NCBI GenBank assembly: GCA_037146675.1
Contig: JBAWWR010000001.1
Location: forward strand, 260-64,259
Source of the DNA: Verrucomicrobiota bacterium
Lineage (GTDB): Bacteria; Verrucomicrobiota; Verrucomicrobiia; Palsa-1439
Length of the DNA: 64,000 nucleotides
Direction of reading: 5' to 3'
How positions within the stretch are numbered: the first letter of the stretch is position 1; each line of letters starts with the position of its first letter. The notes beneath the pieces were generated by a model that ran no database searches, had not been told where the DNA came from, and saw only the letters and a list, made by a program, of their open reading frames with translations. Below are positions 6,327-60,397 of this stretch, one piece after another. The position numbers were made by a program, and so were the translations under genes.

Positions 6327-8624
6327 CTACAACGACGCGGCGACCTTCTCGATCGTGTAACATTCGATGATGTCACCGGCTTGGTAGTCTTGGAAATTCT
6401 CCAACCGCAACCCGCATTCCGAGCCGGCCTTGACTTCCTTCGCGTCGTCTTGGAAGTGCTTGAGGCTGCCAATGCGGCCTTCATATTGCGCGGCGCGACG
6501 ACGGAGCAAGCGCACGCGACCGGTCCGAGTAATGCGACCGTCGGTCACGTAGCAACCGGCAACCTTCGGCCCGGCTGAAAGCTCGAACACTTTGCGAATC
6601 TCGGCATGGCCGACAATCATTTCCTTGGCGTCCGGTTCTAGGAGGCCGGTCAGCGCCTCTTCGACTTGTTCGAGTAATTCGTAAATGATTGTGTACAGCT
6701 TGATCTGGACGCCTTCGTGGGTGGCCATATCAGTGACGCCACTTTCGGCCTTAACGCGAAAACCAAACAAGACGGCATGTGAGGCAGTTGCCAGTAGGAC
6801 GTCGTTTTCAGTAATATTGCCAACGGCGGCGTGGATGAGCTCCATCTCGATCTTGTCGCTCTTGACCTTACTGAGCGAATCCGCAATGGCTTCGAGCGAG
6901 CCTTGCACGTCGGCTTTCAGAACGATATTAAGCTTCTTCTTCTCGCCGCCATCGATCTGGCTCATCAAGTCCTCGAGTGTCGCGCGCTTGGTTACGCCGT
7001 TCACTTGGACTCGGGCTTCGAGCTTGCGTTGCTCGGAGAGTTCGCGCGCTTCCTTCTCGTTCTTCATCACCGTAAATTCGGCACCGGCCTCCGGTAGTCC
7101 CGACAGGCCGACAATCTTGACCGGAATCGATGGACCAGCCTCTTTCACGCGATTGCCGCGGTCGTCAATCAACGCGCGCACCTTACCGCCGTGCGGGCCA
7201 ATGATGAGCGCATCACCAACCTTGAGAATTCCTTGACGGACCAACACTGTGGCGGTCGGTCCCATACCGGGTTCAACTTGCGCCTCGATGACATTGCCCT
7301 TGGCGATTGCCTTCGAGCTGGCTTTGAGTTCCAAAACATCCGCCTGCAACAGAATCATCTCCAGCAGTAGATCGAGATTTTTCTTCGTCTTGGCCGAGAC
7401 ATCAACGGTAATTGTGTCGCCGCCCCACGACTCGGGGTTTAAACCATATTCCTGCAATTGCTTTTTAACCCGGTCCGGATTAGCCGTCGGCAGATCGCAT
7501 TTATTAACGGCGACAATAATCGGCACCTTGGCCGCTTTGGCGTGGTTAAGAGCCTCCAAAGTCTGCGGCATCACGCCGTCATCAGCACCAACTACCAGTA
7601 CGACAATGTCGGTTACATTGGCACCACGGGAACGCATCTTCGTAAATGCCGCGTGACCCGGTGTGTCGAGGAAGGAAATCTGTTTGCCGTCCGGCAGGCG
7701 GACAATGCTCGCGCCGATATGCTGTGTAATACCGCCGCTTTCGTGCGCCGCCACATCAGTCTTACGAATCGCATCAAGCAACGACGTCTTGCCATGATCG
7801 ACATGCCCCATAACCGTGACAACTGGCGGACGGGGTTGTAAATCTTCTGATTTGACGCCCGGTGCCGGTGTCTCAGCTGGTTTCGGCGTGTGAATGGCGT
7901 ACGCACCGCGTTCGCGTTTTTCCAACTCAAAAACATATCCGCTGCGTTCGCAAATTTTGCGCGCGGCATCTTCGCCAATGGTTTCGTTGAGGTTGGCGAA
8001 AACGTTCAACTCCATCAACTCCCCTAAGAGCAAATGCGGCTTCTTGCTCAGCCGTTGCGCCAAGTCGCGCACGACAATCGGCGGCTTCATCGTGATAACT
8101 TTTTGCCCGGCGTCGTTGATGGTAAATAATGGGCCAATTGGCACAGCAGCTGGCACGACAGGTGGCCGTGGAGCCGGTGGCTTAGGTGCGGGCGGTTTTG
8201 GCGCTATTACCGGTGCTATTACCACTGGTTTAGGTGCTACCGGCGCTTGAATAACGGGTTTCGCCAACGGCCGCGACCAAGACGGTGCAGTTGCCGGCGC
8301 AGGAACAATCGGTTTTGGTAATGGCCGTGGTCCAGCAACTGGCGGTGGTACCGGTGGCAACGGCTTGGCGACAACCGGCTCAATTTTTACAACAACCGGC
8401 GGCAAAGGTGGTGGAGTAGGTGGTACAATCGGCAGCGGTTCCGGGGCTGGAGGCTCCGGGGACGGCAGGACGTAACCGTATTCTTTTTCGATGGACTCCG
8501 CAGTGATATTGTCCACTGTGCTGGAGACGCTCTTGACCGGATAGTTCATGGTCTTGAGCTTTGCCATCATCTCCTTGCTGGAGAGACCGCAATGCTTGGC
8601 TAAGTCGTGAACGCGAATACTCAT
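6327..8624 (-). CDS. infB: translation initiation factor IF-2
   Basis: 765 aa. Includes the GTPase G-domain (VTVMGHVDHGKTSLLD, DTPGH, NKCD) and the C-terminal fMet-tRNA-binding domain. Stop is TAG. ATGA overlap with nusA. Confidence 0.95.
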   Translation of the reverse strand: MSIRVHDLAKHCGLSSKEMMAKLKTMNYPVKSVSSTVDNITAESIEKEYGYVLPSPEPPAPEPLPIVPPTPPPLPPVVVKIEPVVAKPLPPVPPPVAGPRPLPKPIVPAPATAPSWSRPLAKPVIQAPVAPKPVVIAPVIAPKPPAPKPPAPRPPVVPAAVPIGPLFTINDAGQKVITMKPPIVVRDLAQRLSKKPHLLLGELMELNVFANLNETIGEDAARKICERSGYVFELEKRERGAYAIHTPKPAETPAPGVKSEDLQPRPPVVTVMGHVDHGKTSLLDAIRKTDVAAHESGGITQHIGASIVRLPDGKQISFLDTPGHAAFTKMRSRGANVTDIVVLVVGADDGVMPQTLEALNHAKAAKVPIIVAVNKCDLPTANPDRVKKQLQEYGLNPESWGGDTITVDVSAKTKKNLDLLLEMILLQADVLELKASSKAIAKGNVIEAQVEPGMGPTATVLVRQGILKVGDALIIGPHGGKVRALIDDRGNRVKEAGPSIPVKIVGLSGLPEAGAEFTVMKNEKEARELSEQRKLEARVQVNGVTKRATLEDLMSQIDGGEKKKLNIVLKADVQGSLEAIADSLSKVKSDKIEMELIHAAVGNITENDVLLATASHAVLFGFRVKAESGVTDMATHEGVQIKLYTIIYELLEQVEEALTGLLEPDAKEMIVGHAEIRKVFELSAGPKVAGCYVTDGRITRTGRVRLLRRRAAQYEGRIGSLKHFQDDAKEVKAGSECGLRLENFQDYQAGDIIECYTIEKVAASL
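8087..8492 (-). repeat. Pro/Ala/Val-rich low-complexity linker inside the infB N-terminal region
   Basis: Encoded segment PSPEPPAPEPLPIVPPTPPPLPPVVVKIEPVVAKPLPPVPPPVAGPRPLPKPIVPAPATAPS...APKPPAPKPPAPRPPVVPAAVP. Approximate coordinates. Confidence 0.5.
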
Positions 8625-9963: not shown

Positions 9964-10064
9964 AATCCACTACCGCCAAAATCAACTGACGGGACTATAG
10001 GCAAAGCTTTTGGTGCGGTCAAGAAATTTCCCCGTAGATTGACAGGAGCACCAGTAATGGTAGT

Positions 10065-11141
10065 ATGCGCATCAGTAATATGGGTTGCAAACTTTTCAAT
10101 ACTCGCAGTTCGAAAAATCTAGCTCGGAACGCGGTTCGCCCGCGGTTTGGCTTAGTCTTGGTGTTGACGACGGTGTTTACGGGCGGATGCGGACAGGATG
10201 GAATCAAAACTTATACCGTCCCTAAAGAGGTGCCGGCACGGACTGATTCTCCAGGTCTCGCAGCTCCAGCAGGTGTATCGCCGTTAAAATGGAAGCTCCC
10301 TACCGGATGGCAGGAAGTTCCGTCGAGCAGCATGCGTGTCGCATCTTTCAAGATTACCGGCGCGGACGGCAAGCAAGCCGACGTAAGCGTCATTCCATTG
10401 CCGGGCGGAGCTGGTGGTGATTTAAGTAATGTGAACCGGTGGCGTGGTCAGGTCGGTTTGGCGCCGGTAGCCGAGGAAGAATTGCCAAAACTGACCGACA
10501 CTGTTGAAGTGGATGGTCAACCGGCGGCGCTTTATGAACTAACCGGTGACGCTGTTCGGATTCTGGCCGCCATCCAGCGTCGCGATGGAATGATGTGGTT
10601 TTTTAAAATAACCGGCGATAGTCAGCTCGTGGCGCAGGTAAGGCCGGCGTTTGTAGAGTTTCTCAAGTCAGTCCAATTTGTAACTAGCACCGCAATGCCA
10701 GCAGTAACTTCCGAAGTTGTGACGAGTAATGCTAAACCGAACTGGACCGTGCCGGCAGGTTGGCAGGAGATTTCTGGTGGGCAGTTTCTTGTGGCAAAAT
10801 TTGTGGTTACCGGCGACGGTGGTGCGCAAGCGGCGGTGAATATCAGCTCCTCAGCCGGTGACGGCGGTGGCTTGGCTGCTAATGTGAACCGGTGGCGAAA
10901 ACAGCTTGGGTTAAGCGAGCTCACCGGTGAAGAATTAGCGAAATCTGTGCAATCGATCGGTCCAATTACGCTCGTTGAAATGGCCGGTCAAGATGTGCGC
11001 ACCAGTCAGCCGACAGCGCTTATCGGCGTAATGGTGTCACAGGCCGGGCAGGTTTGGTTTTACAAGTTGATGGGCGACGCGACGGTTGTCGCGGCGCAGA
11101 AGGCGGCGTTCGTTCAGTTCGTACAAGGAGTGAAGTATTAA
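10065..11141 (+). CDS. lipoprotein with two tandem homologous domains, unknown family
   Basis: 358 aa. Signal peptide with lipobox (LVLVLTTVFTGGC). Two about 140-aa repeats share W-x-[LV]-P-x-GWQE, NVNRWR and WF[FY]K motifs. Stop lies 2 nt before the ccsB start. Confidence 0.6.
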   Translation: MRISNMGCKLFNTRSSKNLARNAVRPRFGLVLVLTTVFTGGCGQDGIKTYTVPKEVPARTDSPGLAAPAGVSPLKWKLPTGWQEVPSSSMRVASFKITGADGKQADVSVIPLPGGAGGDLSNVNRWRGQVGLAPVAEEELPKLTDTVEVDGQPAALYELTGDAVRILAAIQRRDGMMWFFKITGDSQLVAQVRPAFVEFLKSVQFVTSTAMPAVTSEVVTSNAKPNWTVPAGWQEISGGQFLVAKFVVTGDGGAQAAVNISSSAGDGGGLAANVNRWRKQLGLSELTGEELAKSVQSIGPITLVEMAGQDVRTSQPTALIGVMVSQAGQVWFYKLMGDATVVAAQKAAFVQFVQGVKY

Positions 11142-11142
11142 G

Positions 11143-12288
11143 ATGCTCGAACGACTTGCTGGTTTTTTCACCTCCCTGCGGTTGACCGTTGTATTGTTAG
11201 CGCTCGGCTTGGTGTTGGTGTTTTGGGGAACAATAGCGCAAGTGCATCTCGGGTTGTACCAGGCGCAGAATGAATTTTTCCGGAGTTTTTTCATTTACTG
11301 GTCACCGGCCGCATCAGGATTGCGGATCCCCGTTTTTCCAGGCGGTTATTTAATCGGTGGGTTGCTGCTGGCTAATTTAGTAGTCTACAACCTTCGCTTT
11401 GATCGATCCGTCAAGCGCCAACCTGGTCTTGTGGTGATTCACATTGGCGTTGGATTGTTGCTCATCGGCCAATTATTAACAGATGTTTTCTCAGCCGAAA
11501 GCATGATGCACATGCGTAATGGTGAGACCAAGAATTACTCAGAGGCATCGAGTCATTTCGAATTGGCTGTGGTGGATAAAACAGAAGTGGCAACGGATCA
11601 AGTCGTGGCAATTCCTGAGGCGTTGCTTCAACGAAAAGCAGTGATTCGCCATCCGAATCTGCCATTCAATATTCAGGTGCGCACATTTTACAGCAACTCA
11701 GCGCTAGTAGAAAAACCGCAAGAAGGTTTTACACAGCTCAACACCTCCGGTGGTTTTGGTGCCGGCGCTTGGTGGCGTGAATTGCCGCACGAAGCTGAAA
11801 CGGATCGACGTGATATGCCGTCCGCCATTGTGGAGCTACGCACTCCGCAGGGTTCGCTGGGAACTTATCTAGTGTCCGCCTACCTTGATCAACCGCAGGT
11901 GGTAAGTCTCAACGGTCGCCAGTACGAGTTGACGTTGCGCCCTGAACGCTTCTACAAACCGTTTAATCTACATCTGGTCGAGTTCCGCCACGATAAGTAT
12001 CCCGGCACAGATATCCCTAAGAACTTTTCCAGCCGCGTTCGTGTGCAGCGACCGGATACCGGCGAAGATCGCGAAGTGTTGATCTATATGAATAATCCAC
12101 TGCGCTACAATGGCGACACTTATTACCAAGCGAGTTTCGATACGGACAATCAAGGCACAGTGTTGCAAGTTGTCCATAATCCCAGCTGGCTCACGCCATA
12201 TTTCTCGTGCGTCCTAGTAGGCTTGGGATTGGTCTGGCAATTCCTACGCCATCTCATCGGATTCGCCGCAAAACGCAAAGCAACATGA
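11143..12288 (+). CDS. ccsB: cytochrome c biogenesis protein CcsB/ResB-like (short form)
   Basis: 381 aa. ResB-like N-terminal TM helix, a periplasmic domain and C-terminal TM helices. The stop overlaps the ccsA ATG (ATGA). Confidence 0.65.
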   Translation: MLERLAGFFTSLRLTVVLLALGLVLVFWGTIAQVHLGLYQAQNEFFRSFFIYWSPAASGLRIPVFPGGYLIGGLLLANLVVYNLRFDRSVKRQPGLVVIHIGVGLLLIGQLLTDVFSAESMMHMRNGETKNYSEASSHFELAVVDKTEVATDQVVAIPEALLQRKAVIRHPNLPFNIQVRTFYSNSALVEKPQEGFTQLNTSGGFGAGAWWRELPHEAETDRRDMPSAIVELRTPQGSLGTYLVSAYLDQPQVVSLNGRQYELTLRPERFYKPFNLHLVEFRHDKYPGTDIPKNFSSRVRVQRPDTGEDREVLIYMNNPLRYNGDTYYQASFDTDNQGTVLQVVHNPSWLTPYFSCVLVGLGLVWQFLRHLIGFAAKRKAT

Positions 12289-14219
12289 AATTTCTACTCA
12301 AGAGTCTGCCGTGGTTGTTTCTGGGGCTATTCGCCGCAGAGATTGGCGTTGTCATGTTGCCGAAGCCAGATGCTGAATTCCACACCGCAGAATTCGGTCG
12401 GCTGCCGGTCTTGCTTAATGGACGAATTCAACCATTTGATTCTGTTGCACGGAATTCACTGCTGCAAATCCGTAGTACCGGTGATGTGCCACTAGAAGAA
12501 GTACCGGCTTGGCAGTTTTGGCACCACCCACAGAAACTGAAATCGACTGCGTGGTTGCTCGAGGTGTTTTTCCTATCAGATGTAGCCGATACGCGGCCGA
12601 TTTTTCTGATTCACCACCCGGACATTATTAGCGAGTTGAAGCTCGGCGAGAAGGGTGTCGAAAAATCCGGTTTGCGCTACTACACGTTTGCCGAACTCGG
12701 ACCGGTCTTGAAGGAGATTTCTGATCAGGCTAACCAAGCGGGAAATATCGATGACGCGCAGCGCACGACATACCAGAAGCAAATACTTAAACTTGCCAAT
12801 GCGCTTGGCTTGTATCAGCAACTCAAAAACAGCATTCAGCCCGAAGGCACTGAGGACTTTGTTAAATTACTGGCGGCTTACCAAGCGGCAGCGCGCGCGC
12901 AGCAAGCGGGGCAAAAAACTGACGCTGAGGCGCTCCGTAAGCTAGCGGCTATCACTCAACAGTTTGAGAATGTCTCAAAAGACGCTTTGCCGCTTGTTAT
13001 TCCGCCCGCTAATCCTGCGGATAAAGATGCCTGGGTCAATGTCGGTACGAGCCTGCTCCGCGCTAATCATGCTGGCGCAGCTCTTCATCCTGCCACCGCA
13101 TTTTTTGCCCGAATGGCGACCACCTTTGGGCGCGATGACGCTGCGGGGTTCAACAGCGCTCTAGCTGATTATCGAAATTGGCTGACACCAAATTTCGCGC
13201 ATGAACTGGCAAAAGGCAGGGCGGAGTTTTATTTCAACCAGATCAAAATCTTTCTGCACGCGACCATTATTTATATTTTTGCCTTTGTACTGGCGGGTGC
13301 TGCCTTGTTGCTCTTTGCTCCGGCACCACGGCTTTCAGAGTCGTTGCGCCGCTCAGCTTATTACCTCATCGGGTTGGCGTTTATCGTGCACACCTTCGGT
13401 CTTATCTTCCGGATGGTGCTAGAAGGTCGCCCGCCGGTCACAAATCTTTATTCGTCCGCCATCTTTATTGGCTGGGGGGCGTGTGGGTTGGGCTGGGTGC
13501 TGGAACGAATTTATAAAATTGGTCTCGGTAGCGCCGTGGCCGGGCTGGCTGGCTTCGTTACACTGCTCATCGCGCACAACCTTGCGCTTGGCGGCGATAC
13601 AATGGAAATGCTCCGCGCCGTCCTCGATACAAACTTCTGGCTGGCTACACATGTAGTGACTGTAACGCTGGGGTATTCCTCAACATTTGTAGCTGGCACA
13701 CTGGCGATGGCGTACGTCGTGCTCGGTGTTTTTACGCCGTTGCTTCTGACAAAAGTTGGCGCAGACAAGGATGCCACACTTAGTTCGGCCTTGGCCAAGA
13801 TGGTCTATGCCATTGTTTGTTTTGCCACATTGTTCAGCTTTATTGGCACCGTGCTTGGCGGCATCTGGGCTGACCAATCGTGGGGGCGTTTCTGGGGGTG
13901 GGACCCGAAAGAAAATGGTGCCTTATTAATCGTTATCTGGAATTCACTTATCCTCCACGCCCGGTGGGGGCGACTGGTAGGCGCGCGCGGTCTGATGAAC
14001 CTTGCGCTCTTTGGTAGCATCGTTACCGCATTCTCCTGGTTCGGCGTAAATATGCTTGGAATCGGCTTGCATAGCTACGGGTTCATGGATGCCGCCTTCA
14101 AATGGCTGATGCTCTTTAATATCAGCCAAGCACTCTTTATTCTACTCGGCCTACTGCCATTGCGCCTGTGGAAAAGCTTGAAGAAGTTAACGCCGGACCA
14201 ACACGCGAACCTGAACTAA
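12285..14219 (+). CDS. ccsA: cytochrome c-type biogenesis protein CcsA with a long N-terminal periplasmic extension
   Basis: C-terminal WWD domain (WGRFWGWDPKENGAL) and a conserved His-containing TM core. An N-terminal extension of about 330 aa follows a TM anchor. Start is taken as the ATG giving MKFLLKSLPWLF, overlapping the ccsB stop. Confidence 0.8.
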   Translation: MKFLLKSLPWLFLGLFAAEIGVVMLPKPDAEFHTAEFGRLPVLLNGRIQPFDSVARNSLLQIRSTGDVPLEEVPAWQFWHHPQKLKSTAWLLEVFFLSDVADTRPIFLIHHPDIISELKLGEKGVEKSGLRYYTFAELGPVLKEISDQANQAGNIDDAQRTTYQKQILKLANALGLYQQLKNSIQPEGTEDFVKLLAAYQAAARAQQAGQKTDAEALRKLAAITQQFENVSKDALPLVIPPANPADKDAWVNVGTSLLRANHAGAALHPATAFFARMATTFGRDDAAGFNSALADYRNWLTPNFAHELAKGRAEFYFNQIKIFLHATIIYIFAFVLAGAALLLFAPAPRLSESLRRSAYYLIGLAFIVHTFGLIFRMVLEGRPPVTNLYSSAIFIGWGACGLGWVLERIYKIGLGSAVAGLAGFVTLLIAHNLALGGDTMEMLRAVLDTNFWLATHVVTVTLGYSSTFVAGTLAMAYVVLGVFTPLLLTKVGADKDATLSSALAKMVYAIVCFATLFSFIGTVLGGIWADQSWGRFWGWDPKENGALLIVIWNSLILHARWGRLVGARGLMNLALFGSIVTAFSWFGVNMLGIGLHSYGFMDAAFKWLMLFNISQALFILLGLLPLRLWKSLKKLTPDQHANLN

Positions 14220-14297: not shown

Positions 14298-15728
14298 ATG
14301 CAAGGTGGCCATTATAAACCTTCATGGCAGCGTGATACTGAAGTTTTCGTTGTCAGCGCGCTGATTCTTTATCTTCAACTGGTACTGATTCGCTGGATCG
14401 GCACTGAAATTCGTATCTTTGCGTATCTGGGTAATCTTATTTTGGTCGCGTGCTTTTTCGGTACTGGGCTAGGTTGTTATCGCTCAGCACTGCCGGTATC
14501 GTTGACACGACTCGGGATCTACCTCTTACTGTTGACTGGTCTTGTGGCTAATCCACTGCATCTTGAATCTCTGAATTTAAGAAATCTGATTGATTGGCTG
14601 GCTGGGTTCGAAGATTCGCCAATGTGGGGTATGTTTATTGCGCCGCAACAAAGTCGAGTTGTTGTGGCGCTGGGTGTCGTGGGCGGGCTGTTGTATCTCA
14701 TAATCTTTATGTTCGTTCCCATAGGGCAGGTCCTTGGACGTGCCCTTAGTGAGCATCCTCATACAATTCAGGCATATTCTGTCAACATTATCGGTAGTCT
14801 GTCAGGAATCTGGCTATTTGCGGTCATGAGTTGGTGCCGGGCGACTCCGGTGGAATGGTTTGGGTTACTGGCAATTCTCGCAATTGTGTTGGCGTATGTG
14901 ACGGGCCATCGGAACTGGTGGTTCGTGGTTGCGTTAGGAATTATAGTTTGTTTTGTCTGGATCGGACAATCCAGCGGAGTACGCACCATCTGGTCGCCAT
15001 ATCAAAAGCTTGAAGTGCGACACCCTGTTTTAGCGGATTCACTCAAACAGGAGGCGCTTGATGGTGCGATTTACACCATCGCCGCCAACGGCACTGGCTA
15101 TCAACTGATATTGAATCTGGCCGATGATTTTCTGCGCACTCATCCCCGCCTTTACAACTTGGATCAAGCCCGGCTCAGTCATTACAATCTGGCCTTTCAA
15201 TTCAAACCCAGGATCCACCGCCTGCTCATTTTGGGCGCGGGCGCGGGAAACAATGCCGCAGCAGCCTTGCGCCACGGCGTGGAAGAGATTGATTGTGTTG
15301 AAGTCGACTCGGAGATTTACGCGCTGGGTAAAGAACTGCATCCTGAACGACCCTACAACTCACCGCGCGTTCACATGCATGTTACCGATGCGCGAGCGTT
15401 TTTGAAATCGGCAACCGGCTCTTACGACATGATTTGGTTCGCCTTACTCGATGCGCAGCCTGGCTCGTCTTATAGCAACCGGCAGCTTGATCATTATATG
15501 TACACGTTACAATCGTTAAAGGAGGCGCAACGGTTGCTAACACAGGATGGTATTTTGCTGGTAAATCTTGCGTCCCGGCGCAAATGGATTAGCGAGCGGC
15601 TTTACGGGATATTGCAGCAGGTCTTTGACCGGCCCCCAATGAGCTTTCTCCTGGAATTCAACGGCGCGTCGGAATACGGCCCGCCCGGTGAACTCACCCT
15701 GGTGACCGGCAACGGCGCGCCAACCTAG
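14298..15728 (+). CDS. membrane-anchored polyamine aminopropyltransferase (spermidine synthase)-like protein, N-terminal part ending at an in-frame TAG
   Basis: 476 aa. N-terminal multi-TM region plus PABS/SAM-MTase domain (LILGAGAGNNAAAALRHGVEEIDCVEVD, DMIWFALLDAQ). Terminates at TAG 15726-15728, but the frame continues. Confidence 0.75.
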   Translation: MQGGHYKPSWQRDTEVFVVSALILYLQLVLIRWIGTEIRIFAYLGNLILVACFFGTGLGCYRSALPVSLTRLGIYLLLLTGLVANPLHLESLNLRNLIDWLAGFEDSPMWGMFIAPQQSRVVVALGVVGGLLYLIIFMFVPIGQVLGRALSEHPHTIQAYSVNIIGSLSGIWLFAVMSWCRATPVEWFGLLAILAIVLAYVTGHRNWWFVVALGIIVCFVWIGQSSGVRTIWSPYQKLEVRHPVLADSLKQEALDGAIYTIAANGTGYQLILNLADDFLRTHPRLYNLDQARLSHYNLAFQFKPRIHRLLILGAGAGNNAAAALRHGVEEIDCVEVDSEIYALGKELHPERPYNSPRVHMHVTDARAFLKSATGSYDMIWFALLDAQPGSSYSNRQLDHYMYTLQSLKEAQRLLTQDGILLVNLASRRKWISERLYGILQQVFDRPPMSFLLEFNGASEYGPPGELTLVTGNGAPT

Positions 15729-15878: not shown

Positions 15879-16463
15879 TTGTCCCTGTTCGGTACAGTCC
15901 TGTTGCTGCGCAACAGGACGTTTGGCGGCCGTGCTAAGTTGAATTGGTATTACTTCTTTTTGGGCGCCGCATTTCTTCTGCTTGAAGTTCAAACAGTTAG
16001 CCGCGCCACACTCCTGTTCGGGATGACATGGATGGTGAATGTAATCGTGATTTCAGCTGTGCTGGGAATGATTCTATTGGCCAATCTCGTCGCCGCGTGT
16101 TGGCCAAAGTGGCCGGTCTGGATTGTTTATGCCGAACTGCTAGCCACAATTGCCGCGTTGGTACTTGTGCCGCTTGATTCCTTCAACTTGCTTACCGGTA
16201 CAATGAAGTTGGTGGCGGCAAGCACATTCCTAACAGCGCCGGCTTTCTTTGCTGGGTTAATTTTCATTCAATCCTTTGCCGTCTGTACCACCAAGTCGCA
16301 GGCGTTGGGTTCCAATCTCATCGGCGCGCTGGTAGGTGGCTTACTCCAATCGCTCTCATTCGTGACCGGGATCCGCTCGCTCATCGTTCTCGATGGAATT
16401 TTTTATCTCATGGTTTTCTGGCTGCGACCGCGCGCTGGTCGCCGATGCAACGTTGCGGCGTAA
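15879..16463 (+). CDS. C-terminal TM portion of the same aminopropyltransferase-like protein (same frame, open from 15729)
   Basis: Same reading frame as 14298..15728. The interval 15729-15878 is open and encodes TTDDWPYLYLEHAKIPRLHWLAALSLF, a motif expected to be contiguous with the PABS domain. This makes the pair a single gene interrupted by one TAG. Confidence 0.5.
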   Translation: MSLFGTVLLLRNRTFGGRAKLNWYYFFLGAAFLLLEVQTVSRATLLFGMTWMVNVIVISAVLGMILLANLVAACWPKWPVWIVYAELLATIAALVLVPLDSFNLLTGTMKLVAASTFLTAPAFFAGLIFIQSFAVCTTKSQALGSNLIGALVGGLLQSLSFVTGIRSLIVLDGIFYLMVFWLRPRAGRRCNVAA

Positions 16464-16663: not shown

Positions 16664-17248
16664 TTACGGAAGAAATTCTTTGGGATAAGTCCAAGTGGTG
16701 GGGAACTTTCCAGCCTTCTTGGCTTTGAGATAAACGGCGGCCCGGGCTGAGATCGCTTTGGTTTCCGCGGTTTGGATGTGGGTGGCGCACTGCTCACGCG
16801 CGGCATCCTTCAATACCTTCAGCGTTTCATTGATCTTTGCCAGTTGGAGAGTAATGGCTAGCTTGTTGGCTTGTTCCACTTCGGCTGAGATGGTTACGAG
16901 CGGAGCGGGAGTTGGGATTGCGACAGGGAGAATGACCGGAGCGATGACAGCTTTGCGTGTTTTTCTGATTTTCGCAATGGCTGTCTTGGCGCGTGCCTTG
17001 GGCTTGGAGCGAAAGGTGCTGTTTGCTTTCAGCACGCTAGATTTAGTTGCGAGGACGCGGGCTTTATTCTTTGGGTTTCGGCTGAACGGTTTGACGTTGC
17101 GTTTGGTTGACACCTGTCGATCATATGCGAATCGTGGCTGCTTGTCAAAAGCCGACATTAGCGCACGGCTGTACGATGCGTGACAAAAGTGGCAGATGCG
17201 CTGTTTTGTGGTAGCTTGCTGCTTCATGAATTCGTTGTGGCTAATCAT
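16664..17248 (-). CDS. hypothetical Lys/Arg-rich protein
   Basis: 194-aa ORF in a locally lower-GC region. The N-terminus overlaps the cstA 5' end. A likely shorter start would be MSAFDKQ at about 17158. Confidence 0.3.
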   Translation of the reverse strand: MISHNEFMKQQATTKQRICHFCHASYSRALMSAFDKQPRFAYDRQVSTKRNVKPFSRNPKNKARVLATKSSVLKANSTFRSKPKARAKTAIAKIRKTRKAVIAPVILPVAIPTPAPLVTISAEVEQANKLAITLQLAKINETLKVLKDAAREQCATHIQTAETKAISARAAVYLKAKKAGKFPTTWTYPKEFLP

Positions 17249-58347: not shown

Positions 58348-59354
58348 CATCACGGGATCTTGTTCGGCAAACATTGAATTGGGAAAATCCGCTCCGGGTG
58401 CCGCGCGAATTGTGGATGTTACCGGCGGCAACGGCGAAGTATCCAGCGGAATGCGTCGCATTGGCGCGCGAGTTCCCTGCGGACTTTGCCGGCATTGACG
58501 GGCACACGCGCGAACTGGCGCCGACAAAAGGCGACTGGTACGCAGTCGGCGAGTACGTGGATGCGTGGGGCTGCACGTTCATCAACATCCAATACGGCGT
58601 CCACGGCGAAGTGAAAGACCCGCTGGTGAAAGATTGGATGACCGACCGCGCGAGGATTCATATACCACGCGAGTGGCTGACAATTGACCGGGATGCAATC
58701 AATCGCGATTGCGCGGCGACGACTTTGTACACAGCTGGCGGGGCAAACCCGCGCCCATTTGAACAACTCCAGTTTTTACGCGGCACGGAAAATCTGTTCA
58801 TGGATTTGCTGGACCCGGAGCCGGTCATGCAGGCGTGCGTGAGCGAGATGCACGAGTTTTACTGCGAACAATTAACGCGCTGGGCCAAGACCGACGTGGA
58901 TTCGCTGCGGTTCATGGATGACTGGGGTTCGCAACGCGCACTGCTAATCGCGCCGGCGTTGTGGCGGCAATGGTTCAAGCCGCTGTACCGGGATTACGTT
59001 CAAATCGCGCACAGCCACGGCAAAAAGATTTTCATGCATTCCGACGGCTACATTCTCGATATCATCCCGGATCTAATCGAGATCGGTGTGGACGCGTTGA
59101 ACTCGCAAATTTTCTGCATGGGACTGGACCGGCTGACGCCGTTTGCCGGTAAGATCACGTTTTGGGGTGAGATCGACCGGCAATGCCTGTTGTCGGAAGG
59201 GACACCGGCGGAGATTGACCAAGCGGTGCGCAACGTGCACCGGCAGCTTTGGCGCAACGGTGGTTGCATCGCGCAATGCGAATTCGGCCCCGGCGGCAAG
59301 CCGGCAAATGTCCGGCAAGCCTTTCAATCGTGGAATGAGGTTACACAAGCATGA
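58344..59354 (+). CDS. UroD/MtaA-superfamily methyltransferase-like protein, paralog 3
   Basis: 336 aa. N-terminus MTSRDLVRQTLNWENPLRVP and HSDG block (IFMHSDGYILDIIPDLIEIGVDALN). Confidence 0.8.
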   Translation: MTSRDLVRQTLNWENPLRVPRELWMLPAATAKYPAECVALAREFPADFAGIDGHTRELAPTKGDWYAVGEYVDAWGCTFINIQYGVHGEVKDPLVKDWMTDRARIHIPREWLTIDRDAINRDCAATTLYTAGGANPRPFEQLQFLRGTENLFMDLLDPEPVMQACVSEMHEFYCEQLTRWAKTDVDSLRFMDDWGSQRALLIAPALWRQWFKPLYRDYVQIAHSHGKKIFMHSDGYILDIIPDLIEIGVDALNSQIFCMGLDRLTPFAGKITFWGEIDRQCLLSEGTPAEIDQAVRNVHRQLWRNGGCIAQCEFGPGGKPANVRQAFQSWNEVTQA

Positions 59355-60397
59355 CACCACGCGAACGCTGGTTGGCCTTATTTGATGGGCGTAAGCCGGA
59401 CCGGCACGTCACCGACTACTGGGCGACTAACGAGTTCCACGCCAAACTCCGACAAGCTGTCTGTATTACCGGCGACAGCGACAAGCCGCTGTTGGAAAAA
59501 CTCGGCATTGACCGGCCATTTCATCTCGGGCCAACTTGGAAATACAAACATCATCCCGATGATCCGTTGGCGAACGAATGGGGCATCCGGTTTGCAGAGG
59601 TTGACTACGGCACCGGCAGCTACGGCGAGGCAGTGCACTTCCCGTTGGCAAAATGCGACAGCACAGCTGACGTTCATGCGTTTCACTGGCCAAGCCCCGA
59701 CGACTACGATTATTCCGGCATCGCCGAAAAGCTCAGACAGAACAACGGTTACCGGATTGTCAAAGGCGGTAGCTATGAGCCGTTTTTGTTGTACTGCTGG
59801 ATGCGTGGAATGGAGCAAGCTTTCGAAGACATGCTCGTTAATCCGGAGATTATTACCGCAGCGCTGGGATATATTTTTGATTTCCACTACGAACTCAACC
59901 GGCGCATCTGGCAGGCTGGAAAGATTGACATGATGTATCTCGCTGAAGACCTTGGTGGCCAGACTGGACCGTTGATCAGTTTGGAGGCTTACCGTCGCTT
60001 TTTGCTGCCAAATCAGAAAAAGGTAGCAGCACTGGCGCGGTCGTTTGGCATCCGCGTGTTTTACCACACCGATGGCGCAGCGCGAATGTTCCTCCCGGAC
60101 CTCGTCAACGAAGTCGGGATCGATATCCTCAATCCGTTGCAATGGCGGTGCCCCGGCATGGACTTGTCGGGCTTGGTGCGCGATTACGGTGACCGGCTGA
60201 TCTTCCACGGCGGGATTGATAACCAGCAAACGCTCCCGTTCGGCACGGTGGAAGACGTACGCAAGGAAGTTCGCGAAGTCGCGGCGGTCATGCGCGATTC
60301 ACGGTGGATTTGCGCGCCGTGCCACAACATCCAAAGCGTCAGCCCGGCCGCGAATGTCATCGCCATGTACGAAACTATTCGGGAAATTCTAGTATGA
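59351..60397 (+). CDS. UroD/MtaA-superfamily methyltransferase-like protein, paralog 4
   Basis: 348 aa. N-terminus MTPRERWLALFDGRKPD and HTDG block (VFYHTDGAARMFLPDLVNEVGIDILN). Confidence 0.8.
   Translation: MTPRERWLALFDGRKPDRHVTDYWATNEFHAKLRQAVCITGDSDKPLLEKLGIDRPFHLGPTWKYKHHPDDPLANEWGIRFAEVDYGTGSYGEAVHFPLAKCDSTADVHAFHWPSPDDYDYSGIAEKLRQNNGYRIVKGGSYEPFLLYCWMRGMEQAFEDMLVNPEIITAALGYIFDFHYELNRRIWQAGKIDMMYLAEDLGGQTGPLISLEAYRRFLLPNQKKVAALARSFGIRVFYHTDGAARMFLPDLVNEVGIDILNPLQWRCPGMDLSGLVRDYGDRLIFHGGIDNQQTLPFGTVEDVRKEVREVAAVMRDSRWICAPCHNIQSVSPAANVIAMYETIREILV

Follow-up and report, generated by a model that had tools for sequence, protein, structure and literature searches.

A cluster of three genes at positions 10065-14219 of a 64,000-nucleotide stretch of DNA from a Verrucomicrobiota bacterium (contig JBAWWR010000001.1; the whole stretch is called the window here) raises the question of what a lipoprotein with two tandem domains does directly in front of the genes for CcsB and CcsA, the proteins of the system II cytochrome c synthase. 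System II is commonly taken to consist of CcsB and CcsA together with thiol-redox helpers. An earlier reading, made from the letters of the window and termed here the sequence-only reading, took the lipoprotein to be novel, proposed it as an apocytochrome or heme chaperone, and regarded CcsB and CcsA as atypically partitioned. The analysis that followed points elsewhere in part. The protein appears to be a membrane-anchored periplasmic lipoprotein with two tandem modules of the PsbP/Mog1 fold, made together with CcsB and CcsA, and we hold with moderate confidence that it most likely serves the system II synthase as a non-catalytic, extrinsic partner. The partnership with CcsB and CcsA is credible from gene linkage and fold, and the lipoprotein is best read as a protein-binding extrinsic subunit or assembly factor.

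Organization of the operon

Three open reading frames on the same (+) strand, those of the lipoprotein, ccsB and ccsA, occupy positions 10065-14219 in the list of open reading frames. Their parts are as follows.

10065..11141, + strand: lipoprotein gene, an open reading frame of 358 amino acids (353 if the start is the ATG at 10080)
10065..10190, + strand: signal peptide and lipobox, a hydrophobic stretch followed by ...FTGGC, with the Cys42 codon at 10188-10190
10281..10679, + strand: PsbP/Mog1-like domain 1, amino acids 73-205
10737..11138, + strand: PsbP/Mog1-like domain 2, amino acids 225-358, with 36% identity to domain 1 and the same predicted topology
11143..12288, + strand: ccsB (resB-like), 381 amino acids, with four predicted transmembrane segments and the periplasmic domain PD1
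12285..13319, + strand: N-terminal extension of ccsA, with one transmembrane helix and a mostly helical periplasmic domain, the PD2 equivalent
13320..14219, + strand: core of ccsA, the WWD heme-handling domain (PF01578, 80.3 bits)

The lipoprotein stop codon, TAA at 11139-11141, is separated by 1 nucleotide from the ATG of ccsB at 11143, and the ATG of ccsA at 12285 shares the sequence ATGA with the ccsB stop codon, TGA at 12286-12288. Read from this in-operon ATG, CcsA has 644 amino acids and ends at 14219. The spacing bears out the proposal that the three genes form one operon.

Conservation of the gene trio

The lipoprotein's functional link to system II, which had been suspected from a single locus, proves to be well founded when other genomes are considered. 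The survey covered the 80 best genome loci and 80 metagenome loci, the latter seeded with the most divergent members of the family (~30-37% identity to the seed). Linkage was counted from lipoprotein genes toward ccsB.

Genome loci: 79 informative, ccsB directly downstream in 74; the exceptions are five paralogue copies
Metagenome loci: 74 informative, ccsB directly downstream in 72; the exceptions are one paralogue copy and one orphan
Total: 153 informative, ccsB directly downstream in 146 (95%); seven exceptions

In the genome set ccsA comes after ccsB wherever the contig continues. The distance from the lipoprotein stop codon to the ccsB start has a median of 1 nucleotide, and it is 10 nucleotides or less in 47 of 75 loci. 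The genes that flank the trio vary by genome and include those for CstA, multiheme cytochromes, SecA, PFK, and Rieske/cytochrome b with hemA; since the flanks differ, the trio is a conserved unit. The linkage persists at ~30-38% identity (P0153, P0275 and P0346 are among such cases), and a three-domain member from a metagenome-assembled genome (MAG) labelled Opitutaceae likewise has a ResB gene directly after it.

One locus (L028, 2489-11287) carries two complete lipoprotein-ccsB-ccsA trios in tandem, with near-zero spacing in each. Between the two trios the lipoproteins are 38% identical, the CcsB proteins 42% and the CcsA proteins 53%. Wolinella reportedly has CcsBA paralogues that are dedicated to particular substrates, and the tandem trios are reminiscent of these.

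At some loci the neighbours of the trio are genes for multiheme cytochromes (Cytochrome_C554, Paired_CXXCH), or else a divergent Rieske/cytochrome b-c pair with hemA (L001, 1162-5874; L086, 78-5356; the P0153 contig). In L001 the lipoprotein gene is separated from the cytochromes by an unannotated open reading frame of 712 amino acids. An apparent in-frame read-through from ccsB to ccsA at L079 (7957-11307) has a garbled junction and is probably a frameshift or assembly error, not a natural fusion.

Sequence of the lipoprotein

The window protein has a signal peptide, a lipobox and a Cys at the cleavage site, and lipidation is predicted from these bacterial lipoprotein features. The lipobox, ...VFTGGC, ends at Cys42; the consensus of the homologues is L-[AST]-[AGS]-G-C, and the lipobox Cys is kept in at least 90% of 30 homologues. 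The sole other Cys, Cys8, lies before or inside the signal peptide, and therefore the observation that there is no Cys beyond the lipobox holds for the mature protein, where Cys42 is the only one. The mature protein also has no His, and there is no CXXC motif.

Two homologous domains of ~135 amino acids follow, as had been noticed at the outset. Alignment of one half with the other gives 36% identity over 137 amino acids (E 7e-32), and the shared motifs are found at amino acids 81 and 232 (GWQE), 122 and 273 (NVNRWR), and 178 and 331 (WFFK/WFYK). Alignments of families A1, A4 and A6 show no invariant column of His, Cys, Met or Tyr across diverse family members, and several members contain no His at all. 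The obvious candidate for an interaction surface combines the WFxK strand with a glycine-rich loop that is invariant and has NxNRWR after it.

In most homologues from Limisphaerales a motif, LPxGHPD(I/V)S, is found in both linkers just ahead of each PsbP-like domain (e.g. P0070, P0084, P0120, and L083 at 6784-7938). The linkers of the window protein are short and do not have it. The motif could serve one clade as a tag for binding metal, heme or a partner, or it could reflect mere linker composition.

Pfam and NCBIfam scans of the lipoprotein give no significant match, and the family A1 profile finds no match among PDB sequences. With Pfam PsbP_2 (PF18933) and PsbP (PF01789) in particular, the window protein has no match at E <= 0.1. 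A protein 100% identical to it (P0001) is present in public MAGs, where it is named 'hypothetical'.

A known fold

The AlphaFold2 model, built with 30 homologues, shows two confident domains at amino acids ~73-205 and ~225-358 (pLDDT mostly 85-97). Each is predicted to consist of three strands, two helices, four strands and one helix. As modelled, the domains have the alpha-beta-alpha sandwich that is common to PsbP, Mog1, LpqN and DcrB, which places them in the Mog1/PsbP-like fold superfamily. The structural neighbours of the lipoprotein fold, with their scores, are as follows.

LpqN: 12.0
BT_1490: 11.4
Mog1: 10.9
Mtc28: 10.8
Apa: 10.2
Cyanobacterial PsbP: 10.1
SciW/Eag: 9.8
Tsi3: 9.8
PnsL1: 9.1
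DcrB: 7.9

A sequence bridge to the superfamily is provided by a three-domain relative, P0136, whose domain 1 reaches 29.1 bits with Pfam PsbP_2 (cut-off 27) and matches the domain profile of the lipoprotein family at 8e-32. It should be pointed out that this domain is alone in passing the PsbP_2 cut-off among 30 diverse relatives. The bridge and the fold match together put the lipoprotein family in a known fold superfamily, as a divergent branch that is not yet catalogued; it is not a new fold, nor is it a member of the PsbP or PsbP_2 Pfam families. The original claim of novelty thus stands for the family, which is unannotated and everywhere 'hypothetical', with no match in Pfam or NCBIfam, but it does not stand for the fold.

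Proteins of the PsbP fold act as binders and not as catalysts; photosystem II (PSII) and NDH have PsbP and PnsL1 docked on their lumenal faces. LpqN contacts periplasmic loops of an exporter (MmpL), Eag/SciW proteins hold hydrophobic segments, and Tsi3 and TplEi bind effectors. The window protein differs from the lumenal extrinsic proteins PsbP, PnsL1 and PsbP-like (PPL, PPD) in having two tandem domains and a lipid anchor and in belonging to a non-photosynthetic phylum, and its putative partner is a heme lyase rather than PSII or NDH. The mycobacterial lipoproteins LpqN, Mtc28 and Apa and the DcrB lipoprotein of Escherichia coli and Salmonella are, in contrast, single-domain proteins with other partners and no link to cytochrome maturation, and their sequence identity is 7-15%. 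The lipoprotein resembles ResA/CcsX/CcmG and CcmE in that all are membrane-anchored periplasmic accessories encoded beside heme-lyase genes. However, the former have a thioredoxin fold with CXXC and the latter an OB fold with a His that binds heme covalently, and the window lipoprotein has none of these.

The synthase is a split CcsBA

CcsB matches Pfam ResB (PF05140) with 48.2 bits (cut-off 24.6) and aligns to the CcsB part of the fused CcsBA of Helicobacter hepaticus (7s9y). Its His100 is at the TM-His1 position of 7s9y and is invariant in 137 of 137 homologues. CcsA matches Pfam Cytochrom_C_asm (PF01578) at amino acids 386-596 (80.3 bits, cut-off 29.9) and has the WWD motif, WGRFWGWD, at amino acids 533-540. 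Residues His456, His558 and His596, which show no variation in 23 and in 30 homologues, align to P-His1, TM-His2 and P-His2 of 7s9y; the roles of these three histidines have been described (PMC6299221). The NCBIfam model TIGR03144 (the system II CcsB equivalog, which is CcsA in other nomenclature) matches amino acids 364-599 with 130.6 bits and E 8e-38, below its cut-off of 187.6. CcsA is therefore a divergent long form, though clearly homologous.

The sequence-only reading correctly gave CcsB as 381 amino acids and CcsA as having a long N-terminal extension, which amounts to about 345-360 residues ahead of the core. To call this partition atypical is nevertheless misleading. A CcsA of 640-710 amino acids is the routine form in Verrucomicrobiota, and the annotation in public MAGs is plain CcsA. 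A CcsA profile of 23 homologues aligns over positions 206-645 to residues 376-811 of the Bacteroides thetaiotaomicron CcsBA (25vk), and over positions 243-634 to residues 535-925 of the H. hepaticus CcsBA. An N-terminal motif of CcsA, FGrlPvl..GRiqP.dS, has weak matches just past the CcsB part of both fused proteins. In addition, Foldseek aligns the AlphaFold2 model of CcsA, which is of moderate confidence (pLDDT 69.5), to 7S9Z over 671 columns (E 8.5e-11, TMq 0.52). Profile alignment and Foldseek thus both show the window pair to have the PD1+PD2, or 'fused-type', CcsBA architecture.

PD1 and PD2 were defined in work on the fused proteins (PMC10663686). Natural cleavage separates fused CcsBA into a CcsB and a CcsA fragment, at residue 368 of the H. 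hepaticus protein (PMC6299221) and between P241 and L268 of that from B. thetaiotaomicron (PMC13645880), and the boundary between the window ccsB and ccsA genes maps to this natural cleavage region. The PD2 homology and the position of the boundary make the window pair a genetically split equivalent of the PD1+PD2 type. CcsB and CcsA are therefore a complete split CcsBA with PD1 and PD2, all four heme-ligand histidines and the WWD motif, and the 'atypical partition' is explained by known biology.

Compared with fused CcsBA from H. hepaticus (7S9Y/7S9Z) and B. thetaiotaomicron (25vk), the window CcsB and CcsA cover the same elements (TM-His1, PD1, PD2, WWD, P-His1, TM-His2 and P-His2), but the two halves are separate, translationally coupled genes that follow a conserved lipoprotein gene. 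In the literature searched on the H. hepaticus and B. thetaiotaomicron systems no mention was found of a lipoprotein gene with fused CcsBA. With ResB/ResC of Bacillus subtilis and CcsB/CcsA of Bordetella and the chloroplast (Ccs1/CcsA) the window pair shares the pathway, the PF05140 and PF01578 domains, the conserved histidines and WWD. However, canonical ResB/CcsB is longer than the window CcsB, and canonical CcsA lacks the ~345-amino acid N-terminal extension of a transmembrane helix and PD2. Canonical operons also usually include or rely on a thioredoxin-like ResA/CcsX, whereas there is none in the window neighbourhood.

What the lipoprotein may do

On the simplest model, the two PsbP-like modules would dock on the periplasmic parts of CcsB (PD1, the beta cap), of CcsA (PD2) or of both, over the WWD active site, in a manner analogous to PsbP and PnsL1 on the lumenal faces of PSII and NDH, or to LpqN on the periplasmic loops of the MmpL transporter. 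Docked in this way, the lipoprotein would stabilize or assemble the complex, or it might help to gate or present unfolded apocytochrome; it would itself neither ligate heme iron nor carry out thiol chemistry. The periplasmic chamber of PD1 and PD2 is the known substrate-access site in fused-type CcsBA, and the route of apocytochrome to the WWD site and the control of chamber opening have been stated as open questions (PMC10663686, PMC13645880). If the proposal is correct, a conserved, co-translated periplasmic partner that is found across a phylum offers a natural handle on both, and the role of the PsbP fold in extrinsic helpers of cofactor-rich membrane complexes extends past photosynthesis.

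Several observations weigh against such a partnership. Purified CcsBA alone reconstitutes heme attachment in vitro. A recombinant fused CcsBA of the PD1/PD2 type is reported to be active in E. coli (PMC10663686). A partner of this kind is therefore not generally required, and if the lipoprotein is dispensable the finding shrinks to a lineage-specific operon curiosity. The sorting of the lipoprotein to the inner or the outer membrane is not predictable for Verrucomicrobiota. The lipoprotein subtype and the CcsB subtype are not cleanly congruent either, with 26 discordant loci and r = 0.28; an argument from mirror trees or co-evolution was dropped, as the one subtype fails to track the other.

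The fold, moreover, is not restricted to Ccs, given a clade of paralogues (L053, L055, L066, L070, L083, L150) that has a KdpD-N/Usp protein and MdoG/OpgG downstream and not ccsBA, and an orphan (L154, 5965-7641) that has no ccsBA within 6 kb and ends 6 nucleotides ahead of a flavin-reductase-like gene (PF01613). The possibility that a divergent ResB/CcsA pair is hidden at the loci without ccsB was ruled out, as the next genes are kdpD-N/Usp and mdoG or flavin reductase. The sequence-only reading had named an occurrence of the family away from ccsBA as evidence against its proposal, and such occurrences do exist; they are nevertheless a small minority, and two MAGs hold both a paralogue and a ccsBA-linked copy (L061 with L083, L063 with L070).

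The lipoprotein of the paralogue clade is ~47% identical to the window protein (L053, 3354-7672; L083, 6784-10805). Its KdpD-N/Usp neighbour is 92-94% identical between paralogue loci.

A stronger form of the partnership can be considered, tentatively and with more doubt than belief: the lipoprotein may be an obligatory third subunit of the synthase in Verrucomicrobiota, an extrinsic protein of the PsbP fold by which the PD1/PD2 chamber is capped or gated or apocytochromes are recruited to it. If this is true, no extrinsic subunit of PsbP type would have been found on a heme lyase before, and the phylum would have its first new system II component.

The lipoprotein might instead act as a holdase for apocytochrome c, with the PsbP-like modules binding unfolded, Sec-exported apocytochromes and passing their CXXCH segments to the WWD site, and not as a stable subunit of CcsBA. 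We consider this unlikely, as no substrate-binding feature is identifiable in the lipoprotein and the 64-kb window has no c-type cytochrome gene, bar two chance CXXCH matches. Slightly less likely again is an envelope lipoprotein, with a lipid or envelope role like that of LpqN or DcrB, which merely shares the ccsBA transcript. The paralogues beside kdpD-N and mdoG (an osmoregulated periplasmic glucan gene) or flavin reductase speak for it, as do the envelope-biogenesis roles of the closest structural neighbours, LpqN and DcrB, and the very large size of the family (8,761 clusters at 50% identity). However, at 95% of the informative loci the gene lies immediately 5′ of ccsB with near-zero spacing, over ~30-100% identity and amid changing flanks, and neutral hitch-hiking seldom outlasts such divergence; the duplication of the whole trio as a unit in L028 also argues against a passenger. 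A periplasmic heme chaperone or acceptor that, like CcmE, takes heme exported by CcsBA and holds or delivers it, which was one of the options first offered, is improbable. The family conserves no His, Cys, Met or Tyr that could act as an axial ligand, the window protein and several relatives have no His, and system II is understood to move heme directly from the transmembrane site to the WWD site, with no soluble carrier in between (PMC10663686, PMC6299221).

An extrinsic, non-catalytic partner of CcsB and CcsA therefore remains our preferred reading. Literature searches found nothing relevant on a PsbP-like or lipoprotein partner of system II or on Verrucomicrobia Ccs. The trio represents an operon variant of a well-known system that extends across the phylum and had not been described before, and with it comes an uncatalogued large domain family of known fold.

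Size and distribution of the family

A word-indexed search finds at least 3,004 relatives, none with a Pfam domain and each either unnamed or 'hypothetical'; the named ones are from Verrucomicrobiota/Limisphaerales MAGs. An exhaustive search with a single-domain profile against 1.84 billion cluster representatives gives 8,761 clusters at 50% identity with E <= 1e-3, of which 5,835 remain at E <= 1e-10 and 2,123 at E <= 1e-30. Most of the matches have two domains, and some have three or more matched stretches. This defines a large domain family, of more than 8,700 clusters at 50% identity, that has no Pfam entry.

At least 590 species-representative genomes encode the lipoprotein family, and it is apparently confined to Verrucomicrobiota. 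A number of loci carry off-phylum record titles (L010, L015, L021, L022, L028, L030, L035, L036, L055, L056, L073, L080), among them Bifidobacteriaceae, Binatia, Acidoferrum, Sulfotelmatobacter, Limnocylindrales and delta proteobacterium. Mislabelling or contamination of the MAG bins is the probable cause; for the titles Bifidobacteriaceae, Binatia and Acidoferrum this reading comes from loci with the same synteny and ~45-55% identity. In P0188 the C-terminus of the lipoprotein matches the N-terminus of CcsB, which is probably a read-through across a 1-nucleotide spacer.

Surroundings of the trio in the window

Upstream of the trio, on the opposite strand, are nusA and infB. The divergent intergenic region between nusA and the lipoprotein gene has one further feature.

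10039..10066, + strand: promoter-like element, TTGACA, a 16-nucleotide spacer and a TG-extended TAGTAT

The element has 10 of 12 consensus matches and is weak evidence for a promoter, as the number of such sites in the consensus scan is not above that expected from shuffled sequence. It overlaps the ATG at 10065, and the N-termini of the homologues read M[DS]RKLLNT. For both reasons the true start of the lipoprotein is probably the ATG at 10080 (Met6) rather than that at 10065.

With nusA on one side and a spermidine-synthase-like gene on the other, no thioredoxin-like ResA/CcsX or CcdA is adjacent, in agreement with what was first noted, and a check of the 64-kb window shows no gene for a c-type cytochrome, CcdA/DsbD or a thioredoxin-like protein near the trio. 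The two CXXCH matches are the only ones among the window open reading frames and lie at 16664-17248 (minus strand) and 59351-60397 (plus strand); one of them is in a basic, low-complexity protein. Neither protein resembles a secreted cytochrome, and thus the window is without an obvious substrate for the synthase.

Directly 3′ of ccsA, positions 14298-15728 encode a protein with multiple transmembrane segments and a spermidine-synthase-like methyltransferase domain. A second membrane open reading frame follows at 15879-16463, and this pairing is not kept beside the trio in other genomes.

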